Below are positions 754-27,274 of a stretch of 64,000 nt of DNA, piece after piece; position 1 is the first letter of the stretch, and the number at the start of each line of letters is the position of its first letter. The DNA is from Escherichia coli. GTDB lineage: Bacteria > Pseudomonadota > Gammaproteobacteria > Enterobacterales > Enterobacteriaceae. Made by a program: the position numbers and the translations under genes. The stretch lies in assembly GCF_003334305.1 (NCBI RefSeq), contig NZ_QOWS01000004.1; one strand, given 5' to 3'. The notes beneath the pieces are model-generated. The model ran no database searches. It saw only the letters and a list, made by a program, of their open reading frames with translations, and was not told where the DNA came from.

Positions 754-1963
<1,210 letters not shown>

Positions 1964-1967
<4 letters not shown>

Positions 1968-2614
1968 GCCTCTGCTCCGGGTTTGATCAGCATCAGACCA
2001 CAGCCGAACGCCCGGCTTTTGCCATACCCCTGACTGAGACGTTGCAGAAATAACCCGGGATCGGTGACCGTAAGCATCCCCGTATAATCCACGCTACTGA
2101 ACTGGATCAGTTGCCGGGTGTTTTCCCGCCGGGGTTGTTGTTGTCGGTAGGCATCAACCGAGGTATCCAGTAGTGTAAAACCACTTCTTTCCCCCTGCGC
2201 TGCCAGCCAGTCCAGCGCCGCCTGTTGTTGATGCAACCAGATATCACGCCCTTCCGCCTGCCCCTTCACCTGCCGTTTCGCCTCCATCAGCAGATCGTGG
2301 CGCTTGCCCGCTTTACAGATTGTTGGATTCGCCCGCAGGTTGAAACAAAGAGATTGTCCGGTACGCAGCTCGGACACAAATGGTCGGCATTCGATGGTGA
2401 AAGTTTCACTTTCCGCCGGGCGTGCCTGCGAGAGGACAAAAAAGCGAAACGCGCCCTGGAGTTCTTCCCGACGATAAAGAAATTGCCTTTCTTTGCCGCC
2501 AGGGAAGAGATCCCACAGCCACTGATGCATCACATATTCACCGCGATCCACCAGATGCAGCAACTGCGCAGGCGAAAGCTGGCCGGTATGTAAGGTTATT
2601 CTTGAGAGGTACAT
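1964..2614 (-). CDS. casE: Cas6e (CasE/Cse3) pre-crRNA endoribonuclease
   Basis: Start chosen at internal ATG giving MYLSRITLHTG... (216 aa) with AAGGAGG Shine-Dalgarno just upstream; conserved FNLRANP and GCGLM motifs; the annotated ORF extension to 2752 overlaps cas5 and is rejected. Confidence 0.85.
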
Positions 2615-3342
2615 GGTTCCTCCTTGCTGAGCCACGGCCCCTGATTGACGGTGCGTTCCCCAAACAGCCACTGCTGACGATTTAAAGGAACATCCCGGCG
2701 GCGTAATATTTTGCTCGCGACCAGGCCGTCGTGTTTCCCTTCCCACCAGCATTCATCCTGAAGTTTTGGGAGTGAGACTTTCAGTTTATGGAAATGATCC
2801 TGATACTGTTGGTATGCATTACATAAGGCATCACACGCGTTGCCTTCGAGCAGTAACGGCGCAAGAGGTAATGCCAGCGGATGACTTTTTCGCCCCAGAT
2901 AAAGCGGAAAAACTGGATGGCGTAAACCGTCCTGCAACTGTTCGAGGCTGTAAGGCGCATCGGCTGTTGTTGCCACCGCCACCATCCACCAGGCATCGGT
3001 GTAGTAGTCGCGCCGGGAGATAATCGCGCTCAAAAGCTCAGGGTCGCTCAACTCTTCGCGACGGCTGAAATAACGTGCTTTACGCACCTCTTTTGGCATC
3101 TGGACCGTGTGATAATCCCGTGCCCAGCGCGGGTTACGGCTGGCGCAAACCACCAGTGAATAGTGGCGATTAAACGCGTTTAAGCGTTCGGTATCATCAC
3201 GCCGAATCCCTACCCCGGCAGCCAGTAGCCCCAGCAATGCTGAGCGCGAAGGAAGTTCATGGGTATGACGAACTTCACCTGGAGCATCGCCCCCCCAGGA
3301 CGCCATCGGCCCATGAAGCTGAAAAATCAGATATTGGCTCAT
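2596..3342 (-). CDS. casD: Cas5e (CasD) Cascade subunit
   Basis: 248-aa ORF MSQYLIFQLHGPMASWG...; position between cas7 and cas6e. Confidence 0.9.
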   Translation of the reverse strand: MSQYLIFQLHGPMASWGGDAPGEVRHTHELPSRSALLGLLAAGVGIRRDDTERLNAFNRHYSLVVCASRNPRWARDYHTVQMPKEVRKARYFSRREELSDPELLSAIISRRDYYTDAWWMVAVATTADAPYSLEQLQDGLRHPVFPLYLGRKSHPLALPLAPLLLEGNACDALCNAYQQYQDHFHKLKVSLPKLQDECWWEGKHDGLVASKILRRRDVPLNRQQWLFGERTVNQGPWLSKEEPCTSQE

Positions 3343-3352
3343 AAGCCGCCCC

Positions 3353-4408
3353 TTACGCGCAGATAAAGTCCAGCACGTCCTTCATGCTTCCCTGTTTGTT
3401 CATCACGTCAAAACTTGCGCATTCGGTCTTCTGTTCGTAGACCGTATTCATGTTTTCGCGAAGCGTTGTAATACGCTGCACCGCCACATCTAACTGACGT
3501 GTGCCATTAATGGGTTCATAGAAAGCCGCCGCCAGAGAGCGTGGTTGATCGGTGCCTTTTTCTGCCAGCGCCCAGGAGGCGTAGGCACGGCTGGCAAAGC
3601 TGTTCTGTTTGCCGGTTGGGGAGACTTTAAGTGCGGCTTCCGTAAAGGCACGTATGGTCTGATTAGCTAACGCTTCGTCACCGCCAAGGTTTTCGACCAG
3701 CAGATCTTTATCAATGCAGATATAGGTGTAGAACAGTGCAGAACCGAATCCGGTTTCACCAAGATGCCCGGCACCGGCATCTTCAGAAGCCTGGCGCAAA
3801 TCATCAACGGCGGTGAAAAAATCATCTTCGACAATCGTTTCACTGACACCAAATGCGTGCGCTACCTGGCAGGCGGCTTCAACATTAAACTCGGGTTTAT
3901 TCGCCAGCATACGACCAGACATGGCAATATCTACCGCCATACGGTCTTTGCGTAACAACGCGAGATCTTCCTCTTTTGGCGCGCGCTTTTCTTCTGCAAG
4001 CTGATGGGCCAGCGCTTTTACGGCGTCAAATTCTGCCGGGCTGATATGGACTAACTGTTCAGTTTCGGCGTTAGTGAGCGGATCTTTTGGTTTTTTGTCG
4101 TTTTTAGCTTTCCCAAGATAATCTGCAATTTTTGCCGCCCATTCGATGGCTTTTTTCTCTTCGATTCCTTTCTCAATCAGGATAGTTGCCGCCTCACGCG
4201 CAATACGCCCACTGCGAATACCAATATGGCCCGCCAGTGCCTGTTCAAAAAGTGCAGAAGTGCGCCACGCACGTTTCAGACTTTTCGAGGAAACGCGCAG
4301 ACGCGTTGCTCCACCCAGCACCACAGTTTTTGGCGCACCGGTATCATCACGGTTAAGGTTGGCAGCAGGGTAAGCGGTTAACAAATGAAGCTGAATAAAT
4401 GTTGTCAT
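3353..4408 (-). CDS. casC: Cas7e (CasC) Cascade backbone subunit
   Basis: 351-aa ORF MTTFIQLHLLTAYPAANLNRDDTG... matches the Cas7e N-terminal signature. Confidence 0.92.
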   Translation of the reverse strand: MTTFIQLHLLTAYPAANLNRDDTGAPKTVVLGGATRLRVSSKSLKRAWRTSALFEQALAGHIGIRSGRIAREAATILIEKGIEEKKAIEWAAKIADYLGKAKNDKKPKDPLTNAETEQLVHISPAEFDAVKALAHQLAEEKRAPKEEDLALLRKDRMAVDIAMSGRMLANKPEFNVEAACQVAHAFGVSETIVEDDFFTAVDDLRQASEDAGAGHLGETGFGSALFYTYICIDKDLLVENLGGDEALANQTIRAFTEAALKVSPTGKQNSFASRAYASWALAEKGTDQPRSLAAAFYEPINGTRQLDVAVQRITTLRENMNTVYEQKTECASFDVMNKQGSMKDVLDFICA

Positions 4409-6515: not shown

Positions 6516-6612
6516 ACGCATCCTCTCGTAAAAAAGACCATCCCAGGTCGGTTGTCCATCTTTCCATCCTTTTCGGTGTATCAACTATTCAGAGAGTCCT
6601 GTCGCAGACATC

Positions 6613-9312
6613 TCAACCAACCTTGCCAATCAATCCTTCCGTAGCCGAATACCCGCAACTTTCGTCATCGTTGACTAAAATCACGTTTGCCATCTCCGGA
6701 TCTTGTCGCTGTTCAATGCACCACAGCCTGAACGCCTCTCCCTCCAGTAAAGAAAACTCATCCCGATGTTTTTTCCACCAGCTTCGGCGCACTCTGACAA
6801 CGCTCATTTCCCATGCGTGAGCACCGGTGGCATAAGGCTTCACCACACCGTCAATACAGGTAGCCAGCCACAGGGAAACAGACTCCTCAGCCAGACGTGT
6901 CGACAGTTTTTCCGGGAGGTAATCGTTGATATTGGCGGCATAGCCGGGCCTGAAGTTCAGCACAAACTTTTTAGCCATTGCGCGATCGCAGTAATATTTG
7001 CCCACTTGCTCCTGCTCGCTGCGGGCAAATCCTTCCGGCATTACCACGTCCTCACCGTAGACGGATTCAATAAGAAGCCGGGCTGCGTATGGCATCTGAA
7101 TAGCACCTTGCTCACGCAGCACACGCTGCGTCAGCCAGATTCGCCCATGATCGGGATAGACAAATGCACTGTTACGCATGGCACTGCCAAACCATTCGTC
7201 GCCAGGAGAGTCGTCCCAGACGGGAGCCAGAATCAGCAATTCAGGGGGGGAACGCTCGTCCTTTCCGTCACGCTTTAACTGACCATTAATATCGCGGATA
7301 TGCCGCTGTAATCGTCCTGCTCGCTGAATCAGCAAATCAACAGGGGCCAGGTCGGAGATCATTTCGTCCAGGTCAATATCCACGCTTTGCTCAATTACTT
7401 GTGTACAAACAATGACTTGCGACGCTCTCTGTAAACTACAATATTTACCAAAGCGTGCCAGTGTCTCCGTTTCAATTCGCTGGCGATCGCTAAAAGCAAA
7501 GCGGCTATGAAAAAGTGAAAGGCTGGAAGCAGGAATGACGCCGCGGGCAAGCAGCTGACGATGAACCTTAATAGCGTCATCGACAGAATTCCGGATCCAG
7601 GCGATGCATTTCCCCTGACTTACCGCCGATTCGATACGCGCAATACACTCTTGTTCACTATGAAGCCAACCCACGCTGACGCTACGCTCAACGTCTTTGC
7701 GCGTCGCTACCCGGTGTGAGTTCACATCGGATTTCGTGACATGCGTCAGCCAGGGGTAATCATCCTTTTCCAGGAACGGAGCTTCTTGCAGGCCCTCTGT
7801 ACCCCGCGCAAAGGCAGCGACGAGTTTGTCGCGCTGCTGTTGAGATAACGTGGCAGAAAGCAAAATAACGCTGTTTCCGCCACGCGCCTGCCGCTCGATC
7901 AACCCTTCAAGAATGCACGACATGTAAGCGTCACAGGCGTGGATCTCATCAGCCAGCAGGATTTTGTTACTCAGCCCCAGAAGCCGCAGATTATTATGTT
8001 TGAACGGCATCACCGCCATCATCGCCTGATCCAGCGTGCCGACGCCAATTTCAGCCAGCAACGCCTTCTTGTTACTGTCGGCAAACCAGGCCGCACATCC
8101 CTGACTGAACGTTTGTTCATCCGGTTCTTCTGACCCGACTAAATCACCAGACCAGAGTGATTCATTAAAGCGGTCCATTAATGTGCGGGCACTATGTGCC
8201 AGCACCAGGCTGGGGCGGGATTCTGGCGAATAGAAAGCAAGCCAGGTTTTGACCAGCCGATCGTACATGGCATTGGCCGTTGCCATTGTTGGCAGACCAA
8301 AAAACAGCCCCTGAGCTTTCCCCGCAGCTATCAACCTGTGCGCCAGGATAAGCGCCGCTTCTGTTTTACCTGCGCCAGTCACATCTTCCAGAATAAATAA
8401 CTGCGGTCCTTGCTGGCTGATATCCAGATCCAGCACCTTTTGCTGTAACGGTGTCGGATTCTCAATAAAAGGAAACAGCGTATTAATTCCGTTGAAAGGC
8501 GCGACTTTTGCTTTTAGAGGAAAGACGGTTAAGGCGTTTTGAGCCTGAATTAAAGTTTTCTGCCAGTAACCTTTAATATCCATTGGGTGTGCGACGCGTG
8601 GAAAAAATCGCGTTGACGAACCCGTCCAGTCTGCGAGCACGACGGTTGCAGAGATATACCAGGAAAGGTGTTTTATAAGTTCAATGCCCTCATCATCATC
8701 CCAGAATGCGGGGATCTCTATGAGCGGAAACAGTGGTTTGATTTCAAGGAGAAAATCTCGTGCTGCAGCTTTGTCTTCAGGCAGAAAATTATCCAATTCA
8801 TCCATACGATCAGGGGGCCGACCATGATGCCCTGTCGTCACGGGCATCCACATTTCTATCACTCGCCTAAGTTTGCGCGGAGAGAGCGAAGATGAAGGAA
8901 GTAACTCCTGACATTCACTTAAATAATGATTCCACAACCAGTAGCCCAGCGTTGAATGAGAGATTTTTTCGTAATTTTTTCTGGCACCTTCCTGAATCTT
9001 GAGTTCAGGGGGCAGGTAAAGTTGTTGAAAAGAGCGGGCAAATTTTCCAATATCGTGCCAGCACAGCAACCAGGCGAAAAATTGAGCCGCCTGTTCCTTG
9101 TCAGAAATCCCTAATTGACGAAAATAATCAGCCAGCCCGAAGCAATTTCTTTTAACCATTAAATAGCCCATCGCGGCTACATCCAGCGAATGCCAGCAAA
9201 GAAGGTGATAGTCGTCGCCCCCGTCTTTCTCGCCGCGTCGGGTTTTTCCCCAGAAATCAAAAAAAGTCACAATATTTTTATCCTTCAGTAAACTTAAAGG
9301 ATATTTACGCAT
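6613..9312 (-). CDS. cas3: Cas3 HD nuclease / SF2 helicase
   Basis: 899-aa ORF; HD-type N-terminus (LLCWHSLDVAAMGYL), helicase motifs (DVTGAGKTEAA, DEIHACD); heads the cas operon. Confidence 0.95.
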   Translation of the reverse strand: MRKYPLSLLKDKNIVTFFDFWGKTRRGEKDGGDDYHLLCWHSLDVAAMGYLMVKRNCFGLADYFRQLGISDKEQAAQFFAWLLCWHDIGKFARSFQQLYLPPELKIQEGARKNYEKISHSTLGYWLWNHYLSECQELLPSSSLSPRKLRRVIEMWMPVTTGHHGRPPDRMDELDNFLPEDKAAARDFLLEIKPLFPLIEIPAFWDDDEGIELIKHLSWYISATVVLADWTGSSTRFFPRVAHPMDIKGYWQKTLIQAQNALTVFPLKAKVAPFNGINTLFPFIENPTPLQQKVLDLDISQQGPQLFILEDVTGAGKTEAALILAHRLIAAGKAQGLFFGLPTMATANAMYDRLVKTWLAFYSPESRPSLVLAHSARTLMDRFNESLWSGDLVGSEEPDEQTFSQGCAAWFADSNKKALLAEIGVGTLDQAMMAVMPFKHNNLRLLGLSNKILLADEIHACDAYMSCILEGLIERQARGGNSVILLSATLSQQQRDKLVAAFARGTEGLQEAPFLEKDDYPWLTHVTKSDVNSHRVATRKDVERSVSVGWLHSEQECIARIESAVSQGKCIAWIRNSVDDAIKVHRQLLARGVIPASSLSLFHSRFAFSDRQRIETETLARFGKYCSLQRASQVIVCTQVIEQSVDIDLDEMISDLAPVDLLIQRAGRLQRHIRDINGQLKRDGKDERSPPELLILAPVWDDSPGDEWFGSAMRNSAFVYPDHGRIWLTQRVLREQGAIQMPYAARLLIESVYGEDVVMPEGFARSEQEQVGKYYCDRAMAKKFVLNFRPGYAANINDYLPEKLSTRLAEESVSLWLATCIDGVVKPYATGAHAWEMSVVRVRRSWWKKHRDEFSLLEGEAFRLWCIEQRQDPEMANVILVNDDESCGYSATEGLIGKVG

Positions 9313-9480
9313 ATATTAAAAATTATCTGTGATATATATCATTCAATAAAATATTTACATTATGAATAATCAAATAATTTTCATCCGTAATATATATGAA
9401 TAATAAACATAGGCATAATATTCACATAAACAATATAAATTAAAAAAGGGTGCAGGAGACCAAACCATCACAATTCAGTA
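9313..9480 (-). promoter_or_regulatory. Extremely AT-rich cas3 upstream region (probable cas3 promoter, H-NS-type target)
   Basis: About 130 nt of roughly 85% A+T (tatatattaaaaattatctgtgatatatatcattcaataaaat...) immediately 5' of the cas3 start codon. Confidence 0.5.
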
Positions 9481-9500
9481 CGCGGGGTTTTACCCCCGCG
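9481..9500 (-). other. Stem-loop 6 nt downstream of the hok-like stop codon (mRNA 3' structure)
   Basis: CGCGGGG-loop-CCCCGCG inverted repeat; no U-tract follows on the minus strand, so not a canonical intrinsic terminator. Confidence 0.35.
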
Positions 9501-9506
9501 TGGTGG

Positions 9507-9659
9507 CTACTTCTTCGATTCGTAAGCGAGAACTGCCTTAAACTCCATACCACGTTCTCTGATACTCAACTCACACAACGAGTCGCCTACCATCAGCGTG
9601 AATCCCAGTACTGTAAAACACAGCACTATGATTGCCACAAGGGCATATTTTGTCAGCAT
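9507..9659 (-). CDS. Hok/Gef-family type I toxin (50 aa)
   Basis: Hand translation of minus strand: [50 protein letters not shown]; hydrophobic N-terminal helix plus the Hok signature SLCE-x-E-x-A-x-AYES; GGGAGG SD 6 nt upstream; same position as sokX in K-12 as recalled; not in the supplied ORF track (under 60 aa). Confidence 0.8.
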
Positions 9660-9757
9660 GTCTTGCCTCCCTGCAAAGAAGAGACTAACATTCGAATTGT
9701 TTGGGTTCGAACGTAAGCCTCAGGTTGATAGAAATATCGCCTGGGGCTTTTGTCCAT
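9653..9757 (-). CDS. mok-like upstream ORF (34 aa), translationally coupled to hok
   Basis: ATG preceded by GAGG; [34 protein letters not shown]; its TGA stop overlaps hok codons 1-2 (ACATGCTGA), the arrangement typical of hok/mok loci. Confidence 0.45.
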
Positions 9758-9865
9758 CTGGAACCTCGCGAATGCTTAACGCCAGACAGCCTCAAGCACC
9801 CGACGCCATTCTATACCTGATAATTCTTCCAGCGGCGTTCACGTTTAAAATCAGGAATACTGCTC

Positions 9866-9906
9866 GCAAAATAAAAACGCCCCCATCATTTCTGACAGAG
9901 GCGTTT
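9866..9906 (-). terminator. Probable cysJIH operon terminator
   Basis: On minus strand AAACGCC-18 nt loop-GGCGTTT followed by TTATTTTG, 18 nt after the cysH stop. Confidence 0.45.
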
Positions 9907-9923
9907 AATTTATCCGGCAATAT

Positions 9924-10658
9924 TTACCCTTCGTGCAATCCACATTCCCTTTTTAAGCCAAAGAAACGTGTTTCTTCTTCCGACATGCCAGGTTCCCATT
10001 TACGGGTTGTATGGGTATCACCGACCGATAAATATCCTTCATCCCATAATGGGTGATATTTCAGGCCATGTTTTTGCAGGTACTGATAAATAGTTCGGTT
10101 ATCCCAGTCGATAATCGGCAGCACTTTAAATACGCCACGCTGAATTGCCAGCACCGGTAAATTGGCGCGACTGCCGGATTGTTCACGGCGCAGGCCAGCA
10201 AACCAGGTTTGCGCGTTAAGTTCTTTCAGAGCCCGGTTCATCGGTTCGACTTTGTTGATGTCATTGTACTTTTCAATGCCTTCAACGCCCTGTTCCCACA
10301 GTTTGCCGTAGCGTGCTTCCTGCCAGGCGGCGCTTTCGGTAGCGCGGTACACTTTCAGGTTGAGCTTGAGTTTGTCCGTTAACTCGTCAATAAAGCGGTA
10401 GGTTTCCGGGAACAGATAGCCGGTGTCGGTGAGGATCACCGGAATATCCGGGTGAATCTGATTCACCAGATGCAGGCTCACCGCCGCCTGAATGCCAAAG
10501 CTGGAAGAAAGTACATATTCACCGGGCAGATTATCCAGCGCCCAGGCAACGCGGCCTTCAGCGTCCAGTTTTTCCAGTTCGGCGTTAGTTTCTGCCAGCG
10601 CCAGAATGCGATCTACCTTCGGCAGTTCGTTCAGGGCGTTTAGATCGAGTTTGGACAT
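9924..10658 (-). CDS. cysH: Phosphoadenosine phosphosulfate (PAPS) reductase
   Basis: 244 aa from [19 protein letters not shown]...; the longer ORF to 10811 runs across the REP and is rejected. Confidence 0.95.
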
Positions 10659-25751: not shown

Positions 25752-25765
25752 TGAACATACCTGAA

Positions 25766-25903
25766 TGGTTATCCCCGCTGACGCGGGGAACATAAGTTCG
25801 ACAACTTAAAAAATGATAACAAGTCCGGTTTATCCCCGCTGATGCAGGGAACATAATAAAAACTTTAACTAGTTCGGTTTATCCCTGTTTTTACAAGGAA
25901 TAT
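25766..25903 (-). CRISPR. Degenerate CRISPR remnant (three decayed I-E repeats)
   Basis: TGGTTATCCCCGCTGACGCGGGGAACAT, CGGTTTATCCCCGCTGATGCAGGGAACAT, CGGTTTATCCCTGTTTTTACAAGGAATAT; first interval 32 nt, second 20 nt. Confidence 0.8.
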
Positions 25904-26357
25904 TAACTACACTCGATGTCTTTAGAATAAAAGACAATACGAATCGCACTTTATCAATTTTCACTTAAAGTATGAACTGGATATCTTTATTCATAAGAAC
26001 TATTCATCAACAGCGTATAGAGGCGGTTATGTAAAACCACTCATTAGCCTCAAAACAAAGACAAACTTCCAGATTTATTACTTAACCAATGAATAACAAG
26101 CTTAAAAAATATACTGTTATTCTAAAGAAAAAATTAACAGGCATTAATTCAATATTAAAAAAATAATAGATTAAAATTTCTTAACGATTTAAGAATCATA
26201 CAAATAACACTTTGATTAAATTTAATTTTTTGTATCGATAATTGTGAACCTCTCTGGCATGGAGAACTATTTTGAACATGAGGTGTTACGTGGATATGTT
26301 GCTTATTACAAGTACTGCTAATATAAAAACTTGAGAAAGAGATAACGGGTTATATGG

Positions 26358-26935
26358 TGGTTTATCCCCGCTGGCGCGGGGAGCTCAACATCGGAAACGG
26401 CTTCGCGGCGGCGGCGTCCGGTTTATCCCCGCTGGCGCGGGGAGCTCTACGTGAAGAATATTTGCAACACCCGCAAGAACGGTTTATCCCCGCTGGCGCG
26501 GGGAGCTCGGCATAGCCAGGCTGATCCGGCGACGGCCTTACGGTTTATCCCCGCTGGCGCGGGGAACACTGTTCGGCGGGGCGGTAGTACCACTGTTTTT
26601 TCGGTTTATCCCCGCTGGCGCGGGGAACACATCAACATGCAGCGCGAACGGCTGCCCCTCGCCGGTTTATCCCCGCTGGCGCGGGGAACACTCTTATTCA
26701 GTCCCCTTTTCCATCTGCTGTGGCGGTTTATCCCCGCTGGCGCGGGGAACACGTAAATTGCGACGTCCTGCGCCAGTAATTCAACGGTTTATCCCCGCTG
26801 GCGCGGGGAACACGATGCGGCAGCGGCGGCGGGAAGTTATCGCGGCGGTTTATCCCCGCTGGCGCGGGGAACACCTTTCAATATAGTCAGAAAAGTCTTT
26901 TGGCAACGGTTTATCCCCGCTGGCGCGGGGAACAC
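26358..26935 (-). CRISPR. Type I-E CRISPR array 2: 10 repeats, 9 spacers of 32 nt
   Basis: Repeats at 26358,26419,26480,26541,26602,26663,26724,26785,26846,26907; the three leader-distal repeats end GAGCTC rather than GAACAC; leader at the 3' side on plus, so minus-strand transcription. Confidence 0.97.
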
Positions 26936-27130
26936 TCTAAACATAACCTATTATTAATTAATGATTTTTTAAGCCAGTCACAATCTACCAACTTTATAGT
27001 ATCACACAAACAACACATCCATTATGTTAAAGAGCACTTAATCCATTGATTAAAAAGGTAAATATTTAAAATAACTCTATACAAACTAAAATCTACCAAA
27101 CTTTACCGCAATAATTTTCACTCCAGCGAA
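26936..27130 (-). promoter_or_regulatory. Leader of CRISPR array 2
   Basis: AT-rich; shares CTAA-CATA and ACAATCTACCAACT motifs with the array-1 leader; a second AAATCTACCAAACT copy near 27090. Confidence 0.75.
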
Positions 27131-27274
27131 AAATTAATGCCACAGAATTTGTAGAGAATGCTAATGATTAGCCCTGGATGGGTAAAATGGAGGAGTTTTC
27201 AGAGGCGACAAACAATATAAATGAGTAGAAGTCTTTACAGGTTCCACCCATTTATAACGCTTATAAATGTTTAA

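Follow-up and report, generated by a model that had tools for sequence, protein, structure and literature searches.

Background

Nearly all knowledge about the regulation of CRISPR-Cas in Escherichia coli has been obtained with strain K-12, which carries the other known variant of the type I-E system (PMC12736100, PMC3737337). The intergenic region between cas3 and casA of K-12 (IGLB) is cited as bound by H-NS (Pul 2010, as quoted in PMC8616872) and, according to papers citing Pul et al. 2010 and Westra et al. 2010, holds the Pcas promoter, which is silenced by H-NS and relieved by LeuO. The strong target of H-NS in K-12 is the casA promoter and not the cas3 promoter, and cse1 is 20-fold up in an hns mutant (PMC7019758). 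The effects reported for K-12 cas3 include no response to hns deletion in the mid-log phase (Westra 2010, as quoted in PMC4782391), a slight rise of a reporter in an hns mutant together with activation by CRP (Yang et al. 2020, PMC7019758), an approximately 5-fold effect of hns deletion (PMC5394155), and an approximately 8-fold effect limited to the stationary phase (PMC4782391). The dependence of K-12 cas3 on H-NS is therefore weak or conditional, and strong silencing of cas3 is no general rule.

The best experimental precedent for an action of H-NS at cas3, by analogy, is provided by Salmonella Typhi. There, cas3 is described as an independent transcription unit that is silenced by H-NS and induced at basic pH (Medina-Aparicio 2017, as quoted in PMC8039139), and a separate promoter of cse1 is mentioned in the same source.

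In this work, we analyzed a 64,000-nt segment of an E. coli chromosome (hereafter, the window), one part of which is a 100% match to strain 120899 and another part to strain A7. The window carries a type I-E cassette of the non-K-12 variant with a block of AT-rich DNA between hok and cas3, which a preliminary description had read as a likely silenced cas3 promoter. We determined the location, extent, composition, conservation pattern and cassette association of this block and revised the start of cas3; from these data we infer a promoter position, H-NS binding, silencing and co-transcription. An H-NS-targeted AT-rich promoter region of cas3 is the best explanation of the block overall, and one that we hold with somewhat better than even confidence. 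Features of the cas3-hok region are on the minus strand unless stated otherwise.

Results and discussion

Composition and limits of the block

The block lies downstream of hok and directly 5' of cas3, with both genes on the minus strand and no gene between them, as had been described. Base counts gave 85.2% A+T for the 135 nt at 9313-9447 and 84.6% for the 130 nt at 9313-9442, in agreement with the earlier estimate of approximately 85% over about 130 nt. This level is approximately 5.4 SD above the window mean of 49.3% A+T (SD 6.7%; windows of 130-136 nt) and, as also claimed, far above the flanking coding DNA, which has 46-54% G+C. The block is single-copy within the window, and an equal level of A+T is reached elsewhere in the 64 kb only at 26023-26300.

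The limits proposed in the preliminary description, 9313-9480, are correct only in part. The interval as a whole has 78.6% A+T; its AT-rich portion is 9313-9447, whereas the remaining 33 nt (9448-9480, 51.5% A+T) belong to the 3' tail of the hok mRNA and lie outside the block. On the other side, the block continues past the annotated start codon of cas3 into the gene. As the full non-coding block we take the AT segment with the maximal score upstream of cas3, 9271-9447 (177 nt, 83.1% A+T), which spans exactly from the probable GTG start of cas3 at 9270 to the U-run of hok. The composition of the block is thus extreme and sharply bounded. The statement that it abuts the 3' end of hok holds for the hok transcript (U-run at 9442-9447) but not for the coding sequence, the stop of which is at 9507.

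The ORF, repeat and Rfam scans revealed no repeat or credible ORF inside 9271-9447. With a permissive threshold, Rfam matches within 9000-10100 were limited to the hok/sok leader, apart from weak ones at the cysH terminator, and none fell in the block. The only small ORF in the block, a 33-codon frame opened by GTG (9370-9471), was considered and rejected. That the block encodes its own small RNA or small peptide is, in our estimate, a highly improbable explanation: this ORF and promoter-like sites on the plus strand could be taken in its favor, but the ORF spans the variable, indel-rich distal part of the block and the hok 3'UTR, no Rfam family matches the block, and its fold as RNA is unremarkable (z = -2.3).

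A revised start of cas3

In RefSeq, cas3 is annotated at 6613-9312 with an ATG start (9310-9312) that is preceded by no Shine-Dalgarno sequence. Fourteen codons further into the gene, a GTG codon (9268-9270) has the Shine-Dalgarno sequence AAGGA at 9281-9285, 10 nt upstream. The first 300 residues of Cas3 were used as the query in a search of one genome per species, which yielded 12 related cas3 loci from nine genera, among them Pseudocitrobacter, Escherichia, Citrobacter, Klebsiella, Phytobacter, Salmonella, Franconibacter and Chimaeribacter. The protein matches at the 12 loci begin at query residues 7-17. Most of these loci have a GTG, TTG or ATG codon with a Shine-Dalgarno sequence at the position of codon 15 of the window gene or at most two codons from it, and an in-frame stop within 15 codons upstream of the conserved start position is present at 7 of the 12. 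Moreover, one extra nucleotide in Pseudocitrobacter, Escherichia sp. and E. coli B-8794 places the annotated ATG out of frame. In these three sister lineages the ATG opens an 11-codon ORF that ends at a TAA just before the GTG, in the Shine-Dalgarno region; in most E. coli, this short upstream ORF is fused in frame to cas3.

Taken together, the start codons and stops of the related loci, the out-of-frame ATG and the presence of a Shine-Dalgarno sequence at the GTG only point to GTG 9270, in place of the annotated ATG 9312, as the most likely start of cas3. The RefSeq models of this Cas3 lineage then probably begin 14 codons too far upstream. From the GTG, cas3 (6613-9270) encodes 885 aa in place of the annotated 899 aa, and its intact relatives have 885-889 aa. 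The revision bears on expression constructs as well as on the protein models that RefSeq gives for the lineage.

A separate observation concerns the length of the gene in strain 120899. This strain matches the window exactly across the block, and its cas3 (locus positions 1320-4163; annotated 947 aa) has an extra 144 nt, corresponding to a 48-codon in-frame duplication or insertion, with 98.6% identity further downstream. The window is therefore from a strain other than 120899.

The Shine-Dalgarno sequence may be affected by RNA structure. A predicted 9-bp hairpin (UAUCCUUUA / UGAAGGAUA; 9279-9303; -8.2 kcal/mol, z = -1.9) would sequester it through pairing of AAGGA to AUCCUU further upstream. 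Four lineages retain the stem, and the indel is located in the loop; compensatory changes or covariation were absent from the four-lineage comparison. We regard the hiding of the Shine-Dalgarno sequence by this hairpin as a weak lead.

Two parts of the block and candidate promoters

Five lineages were aligned across the block: the window haplotype, the majority E. coli haplotype, Pseudocitrobacter, Escherichia sp. and E. coli B-8794. The alignment divides the block into two parts. The proximal part (9271-9369) has 99-100 nt and 74-83% A+T across the lineages, with 93-98% identity among four of them and 77-81% to E. coli B-8794. The distal part, an AT-rich spacer (9370-9441), has 68-82% identity, 33-72 nt and 79-88% A+T in all five lineages.

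In the proximal part, the window shares 95-98% identity with Escherichia sp. and Pseudocitrobacter and 80% with E. coli B-8794, the latter being approximately the neutral level. Identity in these pairs over the first 900 nt of cas3 is approximately 90% overall and 80-92%, mostly 80-84%, at third codon positions. Since the identity of the proximal part exceeds that of the third positions of cas3 in two of the three comparisons, it is under purifying selection in those two, and we consider 9271-9369 to be probably the core promoter and 5'UTR of cas3. The 72 nt of the distal part diverge at or above the synonymous rate and have indels of up to 39 nt; here, constraint looks to be on composition only.

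The latter pattern, together with the coincidence of the block edge with the cassette boundary of cas-less strains (see below), is what would be expected of a junction scar or neutral spacer, that is, of unconstrained AT-rich DNA that fills the margin of a mobile cassette in the downstream context of the hok terminator and has no regulatory role beyond separating hok from cas3. Several observations argue against this explanation, and we consider it quite unlikely. In two lineage comparisons, conservation of the proximal 99 nt exceeds that of synonymous sites, high A+T is retained in every haplotype despite the turnover of sequence, and cas3 needs a promoter, for which there is no other candidate region between hok and cas3. 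In addition, an AT-rich tract recurs upstream of cas3 in other genera and lineages with different neighboring genes: at 8 of the 12 related loci, a segment of at least 77 nt with at least 77% A+T lies within 250 nt upstream of cas3.

A strict scan for sigma-70 promoters and terminators found no site in the block. A looser weight-matrix scan returned many similar sigma-70 candidates on both strands, as expected of AT-rich DNA, and with comparable candidates on both strands the cas3 promoter could not be located in this way. The best conserved sigma-70-like candidate on the minus strand, which lies inside the proximal part, consists of TTTATT (9350-9345), a 17-nt spacer and GATAAT (9327-9322), with 8 of 12 positions matching. 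A CRP-like half-palindrome, TGTGA-N6-TCATT (9328-9343, plus strand), with two mismatches to the consensus, lies in the conserved proximal part; CRP-like sites occur in the window at the chance rate (30 found vs 24 expected), and this site alone is not significant.

Cassette context and distribution

On the minus strand, the locus consists of the CRISPR2.1 array (19-669), its leader, cas2, cas1, cas6e, cas5, cas7, casB, casA (to ~6515), cas3, the block, hok, cysH, cysI and cysJ. Of 5426 complete E. coli genomes, 2767 contain at least 80% of the region 9240-9520; thus, about half of the complete genomes, including O157:H7, have this variant of the cassette. In strains without type I-E cas genes, the block is missing, and only 58 nt separate iap from the hok U-run; the homology of these strains to the window begins within ~2 nt of 9441, forming a clean junction. 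Because this junction coincides with the hok U-run, the block is part of the cas cassette, whereas hok belongs to the core on the cysH side. The block therefore belongs to horizontally mobile or variable DNA and travels with the cas cassette. Presence/absence polymorphism of this sort is typical of the DNA on which xenogeneic silencing acts.

AT-rich DNA in the 9.4-kb cassette is confined to the block and the CRISPR leader; the cas genes have 47-58% G+C. The gap between cas3 and casA (6516-6612) has 97 nt and 52.6% A+T, and no promoter-like site was found in it. Such a short gap that is not AT-rich suggests a transcriptional layout unlike that of K-12, and the block may accordingly be the main transcription entry for the genes downstream of it. 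The separate cse1 promoter reported for S. Typhi (PMC8039139) counts against such a single-operon reading.

The other AT maxima of the window are CRISPR leaders, located at approximately 670-753, 26023-26300 and 26931-27171. The CRISPR2.1 array has at least 10 repeats with a spacing of 61 nt and touches the left edge of the window; its repeats are of the 'A' variant (…GGGGAACAC), which fits the non-K-12 cas variant. The CRISPR2.1 leader (670-753; 84 nt, 75% A+T) adjoins cas2. The segment 26023-26300 (85% A+T) is located in the ygcE-queE region, flanked by a degenerate remnant of CRISPR2.2 on one side and the CRISPR2.3 array on the other, and the peak at 26931-27171 is on the leader side of array 2.3; further coordinates of the CRISPR2.2/2.3 region are 25756-25903 and 26349-26940. 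Given the position of these two peaks at CRISPR2.2/2.3, the strongest AT maxima of the window mark control regions of CRISPR-Cas.

The hok locus at the edge of the block

The neighboring gene is part of a hok/sok type I toxin-antitoxin locus, in which the leader with the sok region, the Hok ORF and the 3' fold-back element are all present. The mRNA 5' leader and sok region (9644-9801) matches Rfam RF01794 over the full model length (113 bits, E = 1e-26), the 5' end of the mRNA being near 9801 with the sequence GGGUGCUUGAGGCU. The toxin gene (9507-9659; Hok/Gef family protein in RefSeq) is an ORF of 50 aa. It is followed by a strong 3'UTR hairpin according to fold prediction (CGCGGGGG-UAAA-ACCCCGCG; 9481-9500) and by the 3' tail of the mRNA (9448-9480), which is unchanged across all E. 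coli lineages compared. The tail includes the fold-back (fbi) element GGUCUCCUGCACCC (9448-9461), which pairs with the 5' end of the mRNA; in the minimum-energy fold of 9801-9443, the 5' GGGUGC..GAGGCU pairs with the 3' end (z = -3.8). This 5'-3' fold-back arrangement is typical of hok mRNAs. A run of six U (9442-9447) directly after the fbi element ends the hok mRNA and is also the junction between the cas cassette and the core genome. The suggestion that hok sits at a boundary stands structurally, by the location of the cassette junction at the U-run; the silenced domain that would end there is hypothetical.

The proximity of the two genes allows a further explanation, in which read-through from hok would supply much of the cas3 mRNA and the block would be a long AT-rich leader and not a promoter. 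It would account for the co-directional arrangement of hok and cas3 at a distance of 177 nt, for the weakness of the local stem before the U-run (-3.1 kcal/mol) and for the absence of a strict promoter match from the block. However, an AT-rich block is also found upstream of related cas3 genes of other genera that have no hok beside them, strains with IS421 between hok and the block retain annotated cas3, and transcription could be terminated by the long-range 5'-3' pairing together with the U6 run. We consider this explanation very unlikely.

The hok locus itself is interrupted in several ways. In strain PI12, IS421 (locus positions 1457-3040) is inserted inside the GC-rich hairpin 9481-9500 with the target duplication GGGTTTTACCCC, and the pattern of BLAST coverage suggests the same insertion in several other strains; the insertion parts the hok coding sequence from the 3' fold-back element and from cas3. 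The block was also considered as a hotspot for insertion sequences, and this was rejected because the recurrent IS421 sits in the GC-rich hok hairpin outside the AT block. Strain IAL7254 has a partial integrase or IS element (locus positions 3071-4105; window position ~9663) just upstream of the hok start codon, and in K-12 (locus positions 7221-7353) a deletion has removed the hok coding sequence and 3'UTR and left sokX alone. Such recurrent inactivation is reminiscent of other chromosomal hok loci.

Candidate H-NS targeting of the block

Targets of H-NS are much richer in A+T than the genome as a whole, over stretches of approximately 100 bp or more, and the block has 83% A+T over 177 nt and 85% over 135 nt. 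It lies in horizontally variable DNA, and AT-rich tracts recur upstream of cas3 across the lineage. Composition, location in mobile DNA and recurrence together make the block a good candidate for H-NS nucleation, as judged from its sequence. The density of TpA steps is 0.18 in the block vs 0.045 in the window, the base composition by itself giving an expected value of 0.17. Enrichment of the 10-bp H-NS nucleation consensus TCGATAAATT was not seen in the block, in which one site with two mismatches was found (9343-9352). Both observations weaken the case for H-NS. The proposal that the cas3 promoter region is an AT tract of the H-NS type is upheld as far as A+T content, the position at the 5' flank of cas3, the location in mobile DNA and the S. 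Typhi precedent are concerned. Its general premise, that the type I-E cas operons of E. coli are silenced by H-NS, does not carry over to this locus: the premise rests on K-12, which has a different variant and a non-homologous region upstream of cas3. As K-12 has no ortholog of the block, H-NS ChIP data from K-12 would be uninformative about it, and the searchable literature contained no H-NS occupancy, ChIP, footprinting or hns-mutant data for the non-K-12 cas variant of E. coli.

The block is a 5' regulatory region of cas3 of an ordinary kind. Silencing by H-NS at the block seems to us somewhat more probable than not. In the mechanism that we propose, the hok mRNA would end at the U6 run (9447-9442). 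It would be followed by the 72-nt spacer (9441-9370), the sequence of which would drift freely while its A+T is held near 80-88%, and then by the conserved 99-nt segment (9369-9271) with the cas3 promoter and a leader of ~40-60 nt, from which cas3 would be translated starting at GTG 9270. The 177-nt tract, which is TpA-rich and has 83% A+T, would serve as a nucleation site for H-NS (and StpA), and the filament formed by H-NS/StpA would occlude the cas3 promoter and keep cas3 low under standard growth. Reports on S. Typhi cas3 and, in K-12, on the casA promoter and the CRISPR leader provide parallels to such a mechanism. The block would possibly also serve as the main transcription entry for the whole string of genes from cas3 to cas2.

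The same features could belong to an ordinary promoter that is not silenced. Its AT-richness would then reflect an UP-element or curvature together with activator (CRP) sites, and cas3 would be expressed at a low constitutive level or in dependence on cAMP, with little effect of H-NS. In accordance with this explanation, the K-12 cas3 promoter is activated by CRP and gains little activity when hns is mutated, in contrast to the 20-fold increase for cse1 (PMC7019758); the CRP-like site at 9328-9343 is in the conserved proximal part; and no H-NS nucleation motif is enriched. However, the K-12 promoter is non-homologous, so its behavior transfers in neither direction, and the CRP-like match is at the chance level. 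The A+T content of 83-85% over 135-177 nt is well beyond the need of a promoter and equals or exceeds that of tracts cited as bound by H-NS, and cas3 of S. Typhi is reported to be silenced by H-NS (as quoted in PMC8039139). An unsilenced promoter is, in our view, possible but doubtful.

A more elaborate version of H-NS targeting would make the 177-nt block a three-layer master control point of the cas3-to-cas2 operon in the majority E. coli variant of the type I-E system, which is conceivable in that this variant has no internal Pcas like that of K-12. The layers would be H-NS nucleation on the composition-constrained spacer, the Shine-Dalgarno-hiding hairpin (9279-9303) in the conserved leader combined with the short upstream ORF as a modulator of Cas3 translation, and read-through from hok. 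We consider such a combination unlikely; if true, it would tie a type I toxin-antitoxin locus to the capacity for CRISPR interference.

If the simpler mechanism that we favor operates and H-NS acts at the block, cas3 and possibly the whole operon would be silenced through a different site than in K-12. This would affect the extrapolation of CRISPR silencing, LeuO activation and Cas3 limitation from K-12 to natural and pathogenic isolates.

Comparison with known systems

Among the AT-rich control regions of the same cassette, the block resembles the E. coli CRISPR leaders 2.1 and 2.3, which are located at the other end. The leaders adjoin repeat arrays and direct the integration of spacers, whereas the block is next to a protein-coding gene, without an adjacent repeat.

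In Salmonella, the locus compared here is that of S. diarizonae, while the H-NS experiments were performed with S. Typhi. The cas3 of S. diarizonae is of the same lineage as that of the window (64% identity over the N-terminal 300 aa), has a GTG start at the same position and is preceded by a 154-nt segment with 79% A+T. The upstream sequence is not alignable with the block, and the neighboring gene is different.

The K-12 cas3 promoter region has the same location as the block, directly upstream of cas3 and beside cysH and the remnant of the same hok/sokX locus. It differs in that it is non-homologous, has lost hok, is not AT-rich (63% A+T, with the longest AT-rich segment of 15 nt) and responds to H-NS weakly or in a growth-phase-limited manner. 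The K-12 IGLB is, like the block, an AT-rich non-coding tract in an E. coli type I-E cas locus, with comparable or lower A+T (414 nt, 70.5% A+T, a maximum of 81% in any 130-nt window). However, the IGLB is located between cas3 and casA, whereas the block is upstream of cas3. A comparison of the block with the K-12 casE-cysH region, including the cas3 upstream region and the IGLB, revealed no similarity, the best local match being at most 19 nt (E = 0.26). By these alignments the block is not an ortholog of Pcas/IGLB, having no homology with it and a different position. Binding of H-NS to the IGLB is documented in the literature, and that to the block is predicted.

The regulatory data obtained with K-12 thus do not map onto this variant of the cassette. 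About half of the complete E. coli genomes have the other layout, with AT-rich control DNA upstream of cas3 and not in the cas3-casA gap. Compared with the systems described to date, the block is conceptually nothing new; it is probably an H-NS-targeted cas promoter region in an uncharacterized but very common variant of the cassette.
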